Part shown: piece after piece, positions 57,919 through 63,249 of the stretch
Layout: every line of letters starts with the position of its first letter
Position numbering within the stretch: position 1 is the first letter of the stretch
Assembly (NCBI GenBank): GCA_020241865.1
Contig: GCA_020241865.1_4709.1
Direction: 5' to 3' (one strand)
DNA: 64,000 nucleotides
Origin: a phage
Notes under the pieces: model-generated
Seen by the model: only the letters and a program-made list of their open reading frames with translations
Database searches by the model: none
Told to the model about the DNA's origin: nothing
Made by a program: the position numbers and the translations under genes

Positions 57919-58452
57919 TTAAGCTCCTTTCTGTTTGATTGATGATGTTAACCACGATGATCTTACCGTGAAACCCTCGGACTCGTAGAACGCCTGGGCT
58001 TCGTCGTTATCAGCACGAACATCCAGGCCGATAGAATGCCCGCCGCATCGGTAAGCGATGTTACGTGCTTCGTTCATCAAGGCGTGGCCGATCCCGCGTC
58101 CACGGTATTTCGGTTTTACAACAATCGATGTAACATCATGAATGCCCATATGGCTCTCTGTATTCACTTCCAAGAGGCCTACCGGTATCGAAGCGATGGT
58201 GTCGATCATAACGACCAACTTTGCGGTGTCCGGTAAACGCTTCTCTAATTCTAAGGCATCGTACTCGCGTTTTAAATCGGGGATATTCTCAAACATAAAC
58301 GTGGTTGCCCATGCCTCTGATTCTACATCATCGAGAATACGGTACAGCTCACGAATCTGTCGTTTATGTGGGTAAAGGTGTGGATCGGCAGCCGTTGAGG
58401 CGATAACGCAATAGAACGGCCGTTCATTAATAACTACTGTTTTGATGCTCAT
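57919..58452 (-). CDS. GNAT-family N-acetyltransferase
   Basis: acetyl-CoA binding motif VKPKYRGRGIGHALMNEA and C-terminal AFYESEGF. Confidence 0.7.
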   Translation of the reverse strand: MSIKTVVINERPFYCVIASTAADPHLYPHKRQIRELYRILDDVESEAWATTFMFENIPDLKREYDALELEKRLPDTAKLVVMIDTIASIPVGLLEVNTESHMGIHDVTSIVVKPKYRGRGIGHALMNEARNIAYRCGGHSIGLDVRADNDEAQAFYESEGFTVRSSWLTSSIKQKGA

Positions 58453-58955
58453 GCTAAAATTCCCTCATTACCTAACAGTCGATTACGGTGACGTCGGTAC
58501 ATTTGACAAAGTGTTGTGATTTGATAAAGTTTGTTATAACGTAATTCGATACGTTTTTGCACCTCTTTCCATGAAAGTTTATCATATTGCCGATAACGAT
58601 GGATTTCATTCAACATCCGAAGACGCGTAGGATCGGTATTCTTTATTGTTACGAGCTTCACGCGTTGGTATCCGCGCTGCAACCCCGATTCAGAATACGT
58701 AATGCCGAACTCATCCTGAATGATAGTAATGATCTCCCGCCATCGGCGCTTCTCGCCGTCACGTAAATGGACAACCCGCGATAAGATATCGTTCCGATTA
58801 CGATGACTCAGTTTAATGTTAAGCATTGAAGCAATCGCGCTAATTGCTCTCTGACTCCGCCCTAACGCCTCACCGATCTCTTTCGATGTCATGACGCCAG
58901 CGTTTCGACGTATGAATGCGATTTCGGTTGTTGTGTATTCTTTACCTGCCGCCAT
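58449..58955 (-). CDS. HTH DNA-binding protein, member 1 of six-gene paralog array
   Basis: YTTTEIAFIRRNAGVMTSKEIGEALGRSQRAI HTH repeat plus two WxEIxxxIxxEF...Y...LxQxY repeats; overlaps upstream paralog. Confidence 0.65.
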   Translation of the reverse strand: MAAGKEYTTTEIAFIRRNAGVMTSKEIGEALGRSQRAISAIASMLNIKLSHRNRNDILSRVVHLRDGEKRRWREIITIIQDEFGITYSESGLQRGYQRVKLVTIKNTDPTRLRMLNEIHRYRQYDKLSWKEVQKRIELRYNKLYQITTLCQMYRRHRNRLLGNEGILA

Positions 58956-59503
58956 TTCTTACCACGCGTGTTATAATAGTAACGTTGACAAAGATGTGTG
59001 TGATGGTACTCCCGTTTGAACTCGACATTGATAATGCGAGCAACTTCTCTCCAGCTAACCCCTTCATGTCGAAGTGTCGTGATACGGTCTGAAATTTTGC
59101 ACCATTCACCAGGATCGTATCGTCGCAGTTTATGACGTCGTATTACGGAGGCGACGCTCGCTTTCGAGCGACCAAGATGATTCGACATTCGTTTAATCGA
59201 GTATCTATGGATATTATCGCGAATATAGGAAAGCTCGTTGTCTGTATACGTCGCGTTGGTTCTCGGCGAAGGGAACAATACGTATAACTTATTCTTAATC
59301 GCGCTTTCTGTGCGTTGAAACACGGTAACCAGTTCACTAATCGATGGTCTAGGTATTTGATACGCGTAATTCTCGAGGCGTGAGAGTTCCTCATCTGTCC
59401 AGCGGCGGTATTTGCGCATGGGCAACTCCTTTGTTTTTCGTGTAATAACACCAACGTTGATACAACGCATGTTTATTCGTTGTAATCCCAAATTTAACAA
59501 CAA
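58889..59503 (-). CDS. Myb/SANT-like HTH protein, paralog 2 (true start probably near 59422)
   Basis: RWTDEELSRLENY (Myb-like), YTDNELSYIRDN...LGRSKASV, WREVARIINVEF...LCQRYYY. Confidence 0.65.
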   Translation of the reverse strand: MLLNLGLQRINMRCINVGVITRKTKELPMRKYRRWTDEELSRLENYAYQIPRPSISELVTVFQRTESAIKNKLYVLFPSPRTNATYTDNELSYIRDNIHRYSIKRMSNHLGRSKASVASVIRRHKLRRYDPGEWCKISDRITTLRHEGVSWREVARIINVEFKREYHHTHLCQRYYYNTRGKKWRQVKNTQQPKSHSYVETLAS

Positions 59504-59894
59504 CGTCGTATGTGATAATATTCCAATTTTGGGTGACGTTAAGTCGTTCCGCGATAAACGCGATAATCGCTTCCCGTTCTTGCTTGGTTAACGCACGACG
59601 AATTCCATTAAGCCGTATAAACTGACGAACCGAGTCATACGAACGGTTTAAATCATACGCAATCTCCCTCAGCGATTTTTGTTTGATTACGGACTTGATG
59701 TACGCACGTTCTTCTTCCGTATACGGTCGATGCTTCTGGCGTTGACGTATTCCCAAACGCCCCAGACACGCGTCGATGCTGGCGTATGTTCGTCCTGTCC
59801 GTTGTGCGATTTCATCAATCGTCAGCGGCGTGTTCAAGTACATGTGTGTAACATCTTTTAACTCATCGTTACGCCACGGCCGAGGTCGTCGCAT
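59391..59894 (-). CDS. Myb/SANT-like HTH protein, paralog 3
   Basis: three-repeat architecture shared with neighbours. Confidence 0.7.
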   Translation of the reverse strand: MRRPRPWRNDELKDVTHMYLNTPLTIDEIAQRTGRTYASIDACLGRLGIRQRQKHRPYTEEERAYIKSVIKQKSLREIAYDLNRSYDSVRQFIRLNGIRRALTKQEREAIIAFIAERLNVTQNWNIITYDVVVKFGITTNKHALYQRWCYYTKNKGVAHAQIPPLDR

Positions 59895-60854: not shown

Positions 60855-60866
60855 AATGCCACCCCA

Positions 60867-61187
60867 TCAACGTCTTACTTTAAGCGGTATCTTGTTTCGA
60901 AAACAATAACACCGGATGGCATGTACGCTACGATTCATTATTTCAGCAATCTCTTTTAGCGTATGTTTCTTTGCAAGCGTGGCAACCCTAACCCTTTCTT
61001 CTGGCGTATATACTCCCCCACGAGGTGGTAGGTCACCCCGTTGTTTTCTCAACTTGATGTAACGTGCGCGAACAGAGCACGGTGTTCGGTTCATGCAGCG
61101 CGCTACTTCTTTATAGCTCGCTTTTGGTGACGTGCTAAGAATAAGCAGCAGTGTTTCATCTTCTTTATCCGTCCAACATTTACCCAT
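60867..61187 (-). CDS. Myb/SANT-like HTH protein, paralog 6 (short form, ~106 aa)
   Basis: ORF 60867..61337 overlaps ligase; internal ATG 61187 ([11 protein letters not shown]) with AAGGAGA RBS. Confidence 0.65.
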
Positions 61188-63249
61188 CTTTTCTATTCTC
61201 CTTAACCTTATCAATTTTCGAAATAAGCATGTTGATACTTTCTTCTTCGTTATCGGTTGCATCCCAGTCTTGGATAACGGGAATCCCCAACGCTTCAGCT
61301 TTCGCGAGTTTACTACCGGGATTACTTCCACAGACAAGAACCGTTGTGTTTTTACTTACACCGCTTGTGATTGTGGCTCCCATGGTCGCTAAACGCGTGG
61401 CGAGTTGGTTTCTATCGATGTTGTTGAAACTTCCCGTGATAACGACTCGCGTATCTAATAACGGTAACTGATTCATTTCGCGTTCCTTAACTGGAGCTGG
61501 CGCTACACCGACATCGTACAACAAATCGAAGATATATCCGCGATTTGCTTTATCGTAGATGTACGTTAGGATCTGATCGGCTGTGATCTCACCGATACCT
61601 TCAACTGCGAGTAAGCTTTCTTTATCAGCAGCTAAAAAGCTATCCACCGTCTTAAACGCGTTGGCAAGATCGCGCGCTGTGCTTTTACCTACTGTAAGAA
61701 TACCTAACCCGTAGATGAAACGTGCTAACGTAGTCTCTTTTGATTTCTGAATAGCGTCGATAACCTTGAAGGCGCTATAATCCGTAAACCCTTCCAGTTG
61801 GCTAACCTGCTCACGAGTTAACAGATAGAGATCAACCGCAGATTGCACCAACCCACAGTTGTAGACCTGTTCCAAGAACCGTTCGCCAACACCTTCGATA
61901 TCCATGACGTCACGACTTACCCAATGAATAAGACGCGCTACCGCTTGGTCAGGACAAGTTCCGGTTGCAGGACAACGCCAACGCGCTTCATTTTCCTTTT
62001 TCGTCAATACTGTCCCGCAGGTTGGACAATGGGTTGGAAAAATGATTTCTTTTCTTTCCTCTCCGGGACGCACACTCACGATTTGAGGAATGACGTCACC
62101 CGCGCGGCGGATAACAACATCATCACCAATGCACACACCTAACCGTTTTATTTCGGCTTCGTTATGCAGCGTGATGTTGCTTATCGTTGTGCCTCCAACG
62201 AACACAGGTTCGACGCGAGCCACAGGCGTGATGCTTCCGGTTCGACCTACTTGAAAATCAACATCAAGCAAACGGGTGGCTTTTTCTTGCGCTGGGAATT
62301 TCCATGCGCGCGCCCAACGTGGTGCGCGAGAGGTTGCGCCGAGCTTCTCCTGCATCGCGACGTCGTTCAGTTTTATCACCATACCGTCAATATCAAACAT
62401 TCGGTGCTCGCGTCCTGCAAGTATATCGCGATGCACCGTAATTAACGCTTCAGTCCCAACGACGATATGCGATTCGTTAAATAGACCTAATCCTAATGCG
62501 GCAACAAACCCCATTTTTGATCCCTGCGTTGCAAACGTGTAAATATTACCACCATCCATGAAAACATCGTAAGGGCAGAACAACAAACGACGTTTTGCAA
62601 CGGTTTGTGGATCCAAACGTCGTAACGTACCTGATGCCGCGTTACGTGGATTTACGTATGGTTTTTCATTGTTTGCGATGAGTTCCGTGTTCAGAAGTTC
62701 GAATGCTTTGTGTGGCATCAACACTTCACCGCGGACTTCGATTTTCTGCGGCATTAATGTTCCCATCTTCGATTGCGGTAAAACACCCATTACCGTACGA
62801 ATATTCGATGTGACATCTTCGCCTTGAACACCATCGCCGCGGGTTACTGCACGTTGCAACAGGCCATTCTCGTAATGAATCGCAATTGCTAATCCGTCGT
62901 ATTTAGGTTCGACCAGATATTCAAGAGTGTCTTCTGCTACCCCTAAGGTTTTTGCGATGGACTCCGTCCAATTCCGCAACTCTTCTTCACTGAACAGGTT
63001 ATCCAAAGACATCATCGGAGACGGATGCTTCACCGTCTCAAAACCATCGACCGGTGTACCTACACGACGGGTTGGGCTGTTAGGTGAAACCAGGCAGGGA
63101 TGTTTTGCTTCATATTCCCGTATCGTTTTCACCATGTTGTCGTATTCTTCGTCGGTGTATTTCGGTTCCGCTTTAACATGGTAATAGTAATCAGCTTCAA
63201 GGATCGTATCGATGAGTTTAAGATAGTCTAATACGGCAGTGATTTTCAT
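61180..63249 (-). CDS. ligA: NAD-dependent DNA ligase (LigA type)
   Basis: adenylation KxDG motif ([18 protein letters not shown]), four-Cys Zn finger CPTCG...CPATGTCP, C-terminal BRCT-like VVITGSF...[22 protein letters not shown]. Confidence 0.9.

Follow-up and report, generated by a model that had tools for sequence, protein, structure and literature searches.

Six tandem genes related to phage T5 D5 beside the DNA ligase gene of a Goslar-like jumbo phage

The D5 protein of bacteriophage T5 (T5.118, 255 amino acids (aa)) is known from the T5 literature of the 1970s to bind double-stranded DNA (dsDNA) cooperatively. The T5 RefSeq record describes it as a DNA-binding protein that is required for DNA replication and late transcription and is also involved in shutoff. 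When expressed alone D5 is toxic to Escherichia coli, and it triggers the type IX retron-Kva2, its helix-turn-helix (HTH) binding the multicopy single-stranded DNA (msDNA), with escape phages carrying mutations in D5 (bioRxiv 10.64898/2026.07.11.737809). Here we analyzed a phage sequence of 64,000 nucleotides (nt) (GenBank assembly GCA_020241865.1, contig GCA_020241865.1_4709.1; the whole stretch is called the window below), in which six tandem minus-strand genes, designated A to F, encode proteins of the D5-like family. The window shares 92% identity with Escherichia phage vB_EcoM_Goslar, a jumbo phage of the family Chimalliviridae that forms a nucleus, and nt identity over the region 58449-61337 containing the array is 92.3%. 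Genes A to F correspond, in that order, to Goslar gp119-gp114, five of which are labeled 'hypothetical protein' in RefSeq and one 'SANT/Myb domain-containing protein'.

Relationship of the array to T5 D5

All six proteins matched PHROG 323 ('transcriptional regulator, D5-like') with E-values of 2.8e-19 (A), 2.5e-17 (B), 2.6e-13 (C), 2.3e-14 (D), 2.8e-18 (E) and 1.5e-10 (F), and T5 D5 itself matches the same family at E 1.2e-71. When a hidden Markov model of the six paralogs was run on the 45-90 kb region of T5, D5 was the sole significant open reading frame (ORF; E 2.2e-8), and comparison of the paralog profile with D5 using hhalign gave a probability of 78% (E 1.8e-5) over two HTH units. Array and D5 have the HTH repeat 'WTxEE...EIA..LGR....V..R' in common, and both are encoded in the same orientation immediately downstream of an NAD-dependent ligase, which is split into ligA and ligB in T5. 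The first-pass annotation of this DNA recognized no described phage system with such an architecture, which was an overstatement given that all six proteins belong to the PHROG of a characterized protein that is also placed after an NAD ligase; neither the fold, a Myb/SANT/GcrA-like HTH, nor the family, the T5 D5-like PHROG 323, is new. The two systems nevertheless differ in that D5 is one polypeptide with about four HTH units, whereas the array consists of six genes of 106-176 aa with two to three domains each. In addition, T5 relies on the RNA polymerase of its host (PMC7472727), while the Goslar-like phage, a nucleus-forming jumbo phage, has polymerases of its own. Three features of the locus appear to be undescribed: a tandem array of six separate genes that is conserved throughout a phage genus, a genus-specific third domain (R3) that is duplicated in F and lost in A, and a sharp trough of divergence within an otherwise conserved block of replication genes.

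The array is flanked by the NAD-dependent DNA ligase (Goslar gp121) and a GNAT acetyltransferase (gp113), all on the minus strand. Gene starts were refined by reading start codons and Shine-Dalgarno (SD)-like motifs and by comparison with the Goslar annotation and more distant relatives, which resulted in the following calls (R1 to R3 denote the domains described in the next section, and L002 is a more distant Goslar-like locus):

60867..61187, minus strand: paralog A, 106 aa; R1-R2 only; corresponds to Goslar gp119, the 'SANT/Myb domain-containing protein'
60375..60854, minus strand: paralog B, 159 aa; R1 at ~60705-60854, R2 at ~60558-60692, R3 at 60378-60557; Goslar gp118
59869..60372, minus strand: paralog C, 167 aa; GTG start behind AGGAGAA; R1-R2-R3; Goslar gp117
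59391..59894, minus strand: paralog D, 167 aa; R1-R2-R3; Goslar gp116
58889..59419, minus strand: paralog E, 176 aa; R1-R2-R3 and a 24-aa tail overlapping F; Goslar gp115
58449..58955, minus strand: paralog F, 168 aa; R2-R3-R3'; Goslar gp114
61180..63249, minus strand: NAD-dependent DNA ligase directly upstream of A; 92% identical to Goslar gp121 at the aa level; its L002 ortholog has Pfam ligase domains
57919..58452, minus strand: GNAT acetyltransferase directly downstream of F; Pfam Acetyltransf_1, E 2.6e-14

The six consecutive minus-strand ORFs that had been reported for 58449-61337 are present in the ORF list of the window. The lower end of this span was retained, while its upper end at 61337 proved to be a TTG start call inside the ligase gene: A starts with the ATG at 61187 behind AAGGAGAA, overlaps the ligase stop by 8 nt and has the length of 106 aa that is also found in the Goslar annotation. 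Similarly, the start of E is the ATG at 59419 behind AAAGGAG (176 aa), not 59503. The suspicion that overlaps of ~110 bp were mostly artefacts of start calling was correct, as they stem from upstream TTG start calls, and the largest real overlap is the 67 nt between E and F. The remaining junctions are a 12-nt gap between A and B, a 2-nt gap between B and C, and overlaps of 26 nt (C/D), 29 nt (D/E) and 4 nt (F/GNAT). Goslar gp114 is annotated in RefSeq as a gene of 444 nt (L001:4001-4444) starting at MTSKEIG, and an ATG 63 nt upstream restores the first HTH helix YTTTEIAFIR. The RefSeq start is probably 63 nt too short, because this N-terminal helix of F is kept in L002, where the stretch does not overlap E.

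Sequence identity among the six paralogs was 21-38% in pairwise BLASTP comparisons, the best pairs being C-D (34% identity, E 1e-28) and A-B (E 2e-13), and a profile built from the six matched exactly these ORFs and no others in the 64-kb window. The first-pass view of six tandem, strongly diverged paralogs is thus borne out, all of them falling into one PHROG; the full six-paralog alignment is without a conserved stretch of 7-10 columns. All six proteins are strongly basic, with isoelectric points of 9.9-10.5 and net charges of +14 to +18. The ratio of nonsynonymous to synonymous substitution rates (dN/dS) relative to the Goslar orthologs was 0.16 for A, 0.14 for B, 0.08 for C, 0.32 for D, 0.18 for E and 0.06 for F, as compared to 0.09 for the ligase and 0.06 for the acetyltransferase flanking them, which corresponds to purifying selection on all six.

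These values bear directly on the possibility that one long multi-repeat gene was frameshifted into pseudogene fragments, an explanation we regard as essentially refuted. It could appeal to the homologs found elsewhere, in which a single chain of 300-900 aa typically comprises 4-10 R1-R2 stretches, and to the overlap of neighboring ORFs in different frames. However, each ORF begins at a domain start with its own start codon, most of them with an SD-like sequence, and dN/dS is 0.06-0.32 throughout. In addition, a lineage with only 37-58% identity at four of the positions retains all six gene boundaries, and the ORFs align from the same position of phrog_323 (~93; F from 145) instead of covering successive parts of it. 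Because of these own starts, the dN/dS values, the boundaries kept even at 37% identity and the common PHROG 323 start position, the pseudogene reading was rejected, and the six ORFs are independent genes and true paralogs under purifying selection.

The GNAT gene occupies the same place at every related locus examined. Two genes beyond it, at 56788-57438 (minus strand), the window encodes a class I S-adenosylmethionine (SAM) methyltransferase; together the two enzymes make curious surroundings for a block of lysine- and arginine-rich predicted DNA-binding proteins.

Domain structure and other relatives

The proteins had been described as three-repeat Myb/SANT-like HTH proteins throughout. Closer examination confirmed a three-part layout (R1-R2-R3) for B to E, while A consists of R1-R2 and F of R2-R3-R3'. 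Comparison of sub-alignment profiles with hhalign revealed R1 and R2 to be homologous (probability 96.8%), so that two HTH repeats of common origin stand, whereas R3 exhibited no detectable relation to R1 or R2 (6-10%) and cannot be counted as a third copy. The paralog profile gives two R3 matches in F, and this protein matches phrog_323 at positions 145-294, one repeat shifted relative to A-E. In L002 paralog A has 152 aa and R3 is kept; in the lineage of the window and Goslar A has lost it. A structure model of R3 by itself reached a modest pLDDT (predicted local distance difference test score) of 67 and matched generic three-helix modules, which is consistent with a predicted lineage-specific C-terminal three-helix domain to which no closer label applies.

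The fold of the HTH units is a three-helix bundle superimposable on SANT/Myb, and it is also that of the N-terminal DNA-binding domain of GcrA (PF07750). Profile searches agreed with an HTH fold, with A passing the Myb thresholds and B and C that of Sigma70_r4_2. In the Pfam scan A scored 33.6 bits for Myb_DNA-bind_6 (cut-off 22.9), 30.7 for Myb_DNA-binding (24.4) and 26.1 for HTH_23 (24.6), B remained below threshold for the Myb families PF00249 and PF13921 (15.7 and 13.6), and C to F had no match to either of these. Sigma70_r4_2 (PF08281; cut-off 25.7) was exceeded by B (35.8) and C (27.1), with D below it (22.9); no Sigma70_r2 match was obtained for any of the six, and the NCBIfam sigma70-ECF model (cut-off 42.9), matched over region 4 only, gave no more than 16-17.5 bits. 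For GcrA (PF07750; cut-off 26.9) the sole sequence match was that of B, which scored 15.0 bits and covered positions 2-42 of the 155 in the profile. Myb repeats have three regularly spaced core tryptophans. Of these only the first (WT..E) is conserved here, in R1 only, the other positions being aliphatic or Tyr in the R1 and R2 alignments. The array proteins are therefore set apart from each of the familiar classes: from Myb/SANT proteins, since B-F fail the Myb thresholds and one of three tryptophans is kept; from GcrA, whose C-terminal sigma-70-interacting domain is absent and for which the score lies below threshold; and from sigma-70 factors, with which they share the region 4 HTH (B and C above cut-off) and not region 2.

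The HTH domains are joined by basic linkers, for example NRNRKRWKLTSRHRY in B and ERRKPHKRF in C, an arrangement that was also seen in the model of B. By sequence, the best match in the PDB was 2lvs (E 3.6e-9 over R1-linker-R2). This entry is Cbp2, an archaeal CRISPR repeat-binding protein in which two HTH domains and a basic linker recognize a 25-bp repeat (PMC3597662). The likeness of Cbp1 and Cbp2 to the array lies in their two or three HTH domains, which basic linkers hold together (PMC3597662); in contrast, they are archaeal, cellular proteins that bind a DNA repeat and are encoded by single-copy genes, not by a tandem array. Scores for the NCBIfam Cbp1 family (NF040595) were 22.2 bits for C and 24.0 for D over ~100-120 residues against a cut-off of 140, which excludes membership. 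Cbp2 serves as a mechanistic analogue (linked HTH domains on an extended site), not as a family relation.

In an exhaustive HMMER search of 1.84 billion cluster representatives, 13,718 proteins reached E <= 1e-3, and 108 of these reached E <= 1e-30. The top matches were almost all long proteins (300-900 aa) in which one chain matches profile positions ~4-105 (R1-R2) 4-10 times in tandem. One of them has an N-terminal helicase, and all five long homologs scanned against the PHROGs belonged to phrog_323 (E 1e-56 to 1e-108). These long multi-repeat HTH proteins of phages and bacteria use the same R1-R2 unit as the array, but fused in one chain and without R3. Among the best 150 matches, those with a single stretch were the sole ones reaching into R3, and by sequence they are short Goslar-type orthologs. 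The split six-gene array with R3 has so far been seen only in Goslar-like phages, with no systematic survey for split arrays elsewhere. A related-locus search with the C/D sub-alignment returned Goslar-like contigs only. When 50,697 phage records were searched by tblastn, a method too insensitive for this family, paralog C and a consensus-like homolog with four repeats retrieved only Goslar and HTH regions of unrelated mycobacteriophages.

Weaker matches (E 1e-3 to 2e-7) were obtained for the HNH-endonuclease PHROGs 1891, 8446 and 7545, covering only their N-terminal HTH part (positions ~2-100 of 160-255), and no nuclease domain or motif was found in the six paralogs in the Pfam, PHROG and NCBIfam scans. 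In T5 the products T5.112, D3 and T5.115 encoded near the ligase fall into other PHROGs, and this T5 region contains no dispersed D5 paralogs. T5 'ORF55', the trigger of DRT4, was considered as a relative of D5 and discarded, being an unrelated single-stranded DNA binder of the PriA-NTD-like type.

Divergence and copy number among Goslar-like loci

We compared 12 Goslar-like loci, the window and 11 others, taken from IMG/VR, ENA, Logan and GenBank. The six-gene layout with the same boundaries was present in nine of them, the window counted. The other three are L004, with five genes, and the short contigs L006 and L013, on which only a portion of the array is seen; gene order agrees at all 12 loci. 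One Goslar-like lineage differs from the window by up to 63% in protein sequence. Protein identities between the window and L002, listed in gene order, were:

Ligase: 86%
A: 58%
B: 73%
C: 48%
D: 37%, the most diverged position
E: 47%; E of L002 has 152 aa and is without the tail
F: 87.5%
GNAT: 82%

A sliding nt comparison of the same two loci followed this pattern: identity was ~80% in the ligase gene, dropped to 45-57% over a stretch that begins in the 3' part of A and takes in B to E, and was back at ~80% in F and GNAT. The best matches between the window and L002 are positional, and the genes are therefore diverged alleles of the same six slots. The first-pass description of a diversifying family is apt for the trough over A-E between these two lineages and does not apply at the distance between the window and Goslar, where the genes are conserved.

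Copy number among the relatives was five or six. The five-gene array of L004 opens with a gene (L004:5519-6001) that reads MGRHWTPEEDAVL..., a fusion in which the body of B follows the initial codons of A, and which implies that A was lost through recombination between paralogs. L004 and L013 are mosaic: R1 of C and the greater part of F are nearer the window type, while the rest of C, D and E are of the L002 type, and this indicates recombination within and between the paralog genes. Based on these comparisons the center of the array appears to be a local hot spot of divergence and rearrangement, through either accelerated evolution or replacement of a segment.

A further difference concerns Goslar gp120 (L001:6743-7450), which encodes 235 aa without a Pfam or PHROG match. 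This gene is present in Goslar and the metagenomic locus L004, absent from the window and L002, and inserted at the equivalent of window 61184/61185, right after the ATG of A that overlaps the ligase stop; the insert supplies its own downstream ATG for the next gene and in this respect resembles a cassette.

Possible functions and transcription context

The explanation we favor, tentatively and with slightly less than even confidence, is that the locus could be a lineage-specific tandem expansion of a T5 D5-type protein whose products bind phage DNA as regulatory or architectural factors. The six co-oriented, closely packed genes would be expressed from one apparent transcription unit, and in each product two GcrA/Myb-like HTH domains with their basic linker would bind dsDNA, R3 adding a further contact or an interaction surface. 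Such a 'beads on a string' arrangement of HTH domains is found in Cbp1/Cbp2, Pax and Myb, proteins that read dsDNA sites of ~20-25 bp. Diverged recognition helices would provide each paralog with a different set of targets. Most probably it is the phage genome that would be bound, with a role in replication-coupled or late gene expression as for D5 in T5; action on the phage genome is favored because of the D5 precedent and the replication-gene neighborhood. The model is also supported by the common PHROG membership with D5, the linked-HTH analogue Cbp2, the positive charge of the proteins, the operon-like packing with hairpin/TATG motifs on either side, and the constant gene order at the Goslar-like loci.

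Several observations weigh against this expansion model. R3 has no counterpart in T5 D5, and the direct similarity between D5 and the array is modest and confined to the HTH repeats. The adjacency of ligase and D5-like genes was found in T5 and Goslar-like phages only and may be a coincidence: the ligases of Serratia phage Moabite (44%) and Ralstonia phage RSL2 (40%) were the closest after Goslar's own among the phage-collection matches listed, and no D5-like ORF lies within 6 kb of either. Because the Goslar-type and T5 ligases are only 22-32% identical and the adjacency is absent in Moabite and RSL2, the common synteny is suggestive and not evidence of a conserved module. The same type of HTH also occurs on HNH endonucleases, helicases and resolvases, and the fold does not specify regulation. 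Furthermore, reaching phage DNA would require import into the phage nucleus, and Goslar gp114-gp119 are mentioned nowhere in the literature searched, the Goslar RNA-seq paper not naming them; nor does the text of the Goslar virion mass-spectrometry study list them with its abundant unmodelled virion proteins.

The host-takeover and decoy roles put forward in the first-pass annotation are speculative. The main alternative is a host-directed takeover function, in which the proteins would stay in the cytoplasm, where host DNA alone is within reach, and coat or silence the host chromosome or plasmids. The toxicity of T5 D5 in E. coli (bioRxiv 10.64898/2026.07.11.737809) and the strong positive charge of the paralogs are in line with such a role, as are the lack of a recognized import signal for them and the separation of chimallivirus DNA from the cytoplasm within the phage nucleus. 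We consider it unlikely nonetheless, as the position in a replication-gene unit just after the ligase points to phage DNA, the D5 precedent is one of phage replication and late transcription, and non-specific silencing would not obviously need six different paralogs. A role of defence systems, with variants or decoys kept diverse against immune sensors of D5-like binders, is suggested by D5 as the trigger of retron-Kva2 (bioRxiv 10.64898/2026.07.11.737809), by the 37-58% identity of A, C, D and E between the window and L002 as opposed to 82-87.5% for ligase, F and GNAT, and by the turnover evident in the A/B fusion, the R3 loss in A and the mosaicism of L004. Against it, selection between the window and Goslar is purifying at values (0.06-0.32) similar to that of the ligase (0.09), replacement of the segment by recombination with a distant relative could equally have produced the trough, and no defence system is known to sense these six proteins; we judge this explanation distinctly improbable. 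In the comparison of the window with L002 synonymous sites are saturated, and positive selection is not measurable there.

Slightly less probable again is a reading of the six proteins as chromatin of the phage nucleus, which would both coat and partition the phage DNA and would gate its transcription by the phage's own polymerases. Since this compartment excludes the nucleoid proteins of the host, a family of phage-encoded, sequence-diversified DNA organizers could fill the role, for which the 'chromatinization' of CRISPR arrays by Cbp1-Cren7 offers a likeness. If this were true, DNA affinity could be tuned by the adjoining GNAT acetyltransferase, with the SAM methyltransferase only two genes on, and the divergence of the central paralogs would represent co-evolution with binding sites or with host sensors of D5-like proteins. 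Least probable among the functional alternatives, and in our view very doubtful, is that the array is a remnant of selfish elements, i.e. DNA-binding modules left behind by homing endonucleases, which are often inserted near replication genes. The weaker HTH matches to the HNH PHROGs 1891, 8446 and 7545 (E 1e-3 to 2e-7), the fusion of the same repeat to HNH nucleases, helicases and resolvases elsewhere, the gp120 indel cassette at the ligase/A junction and the split T5 ligase would all be compatible with this origin. However, the paralogs are without a nuclease domain or motif, their phrog_323 matches are better by 6-14 orders of magnitude than those to the HNH families, gene order and frames are conserved in all Goslar-like loci under purifying selection, and the regularity of the R1-R2-R3 unit speaks for an origin by duplication of a single three-domain gene.

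What is demonstrated here, for a very common type of domain, is the paralogy of the six genes, their HTH fold and family membership, purifying selection, basic charge, gene order, and the divergence and copy-number variation among lineages; DNA binding, its targets, co-transcription and a regulatory role are inferred. Nucleus-forming jumbo phages use their own RNA polymerases, and the conserved six-gene D5-type block next to replication genes in the model phage Goslar presents concrete candidates for sequence-specific accessory factors of transcription and for organizers of the DNA in the phage nucleus. With T5 D5 as a retron trigger, the divergence trough becomes a testable case of defence possibly shaping phage DNA-binding proteins. 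Even if the six turn out to be ordinary regulators, the analysis provides useful annotation, in that six 'hypothetical' Goslar genes are assigned to the D5-like family and two gene starts are corrected.

The transcription context of the array was examined through recurrent elements in the window. A GC-rich hairpin directly followed by TTATGCYGWT occurs at five exact sites, as compared to 0.87 expected in the motif search. The hairpins are intergenic, of the CCCTCCC...GGGAGGG type and have folding energies of -17 to -31 kcal/mol:

63576-63612, minus strand: hairpin followed by TTATGCCGAT; -26.2 kcal/mol, z -2.5; putative junction of terminator and promoter, bounding the unit on its upstream side
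57454-57486, minus strand: hairpin CCCTCCC-GGCAC-GGGAGGG followed by TTATGCTGAT; -17.4 kcal/mol, z -3.4; putative downstream end of the unit
50249-50290, minus strand: hairpin/TTATGCYGWT site, exact motif
25957-25966, minus strand: hairpin/TTATGCYGWT site, exact motif
32144-32193, plus strand: hairpin/TTATGCYGWT site, exact motif
1367-1416 and 9642-9691: variants of the hairpin/TTATGCYGWT element

The first two sites bracket a unit comprising a gp122-like gene, the ligase, A-F, GNAT and a gp112-like gene. In phiKZ, TATG with its G as the start site forms the core of the late promoters of the non-virion RNA polymerase (nvRNAP) (PMC4666361). By analogy, the elements in the window may be junctions of a terminator and a TATG-type promoter for the phage's own RNA polymerase, in which case the array would be co-transcribed with the ligase. 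Sigma-70 promoters and intrinsic terminators were not enriched over shuffled sequences in a scan of 55-64 kb.

Two further repeats were noted in the window. Positions 38815-39935 hold seven copies of a tandem direct repeat of 113-120 nt, with 68-72% identity to the reference copy, a spacing of 120 nt and one gap of 408 nt, which presumably encodes a protein with a ~40-aa repeat. Two 34-nt copies (ACATCTTGACATCCTTTTATATTGGATTGGTTGC) at 25335-25368 and 53506-53539 are 97% identical although 28 kb apart; AT-rich and with a TATATT core, they are a candidate for a conserved regulatory element, possibly an early promoter.

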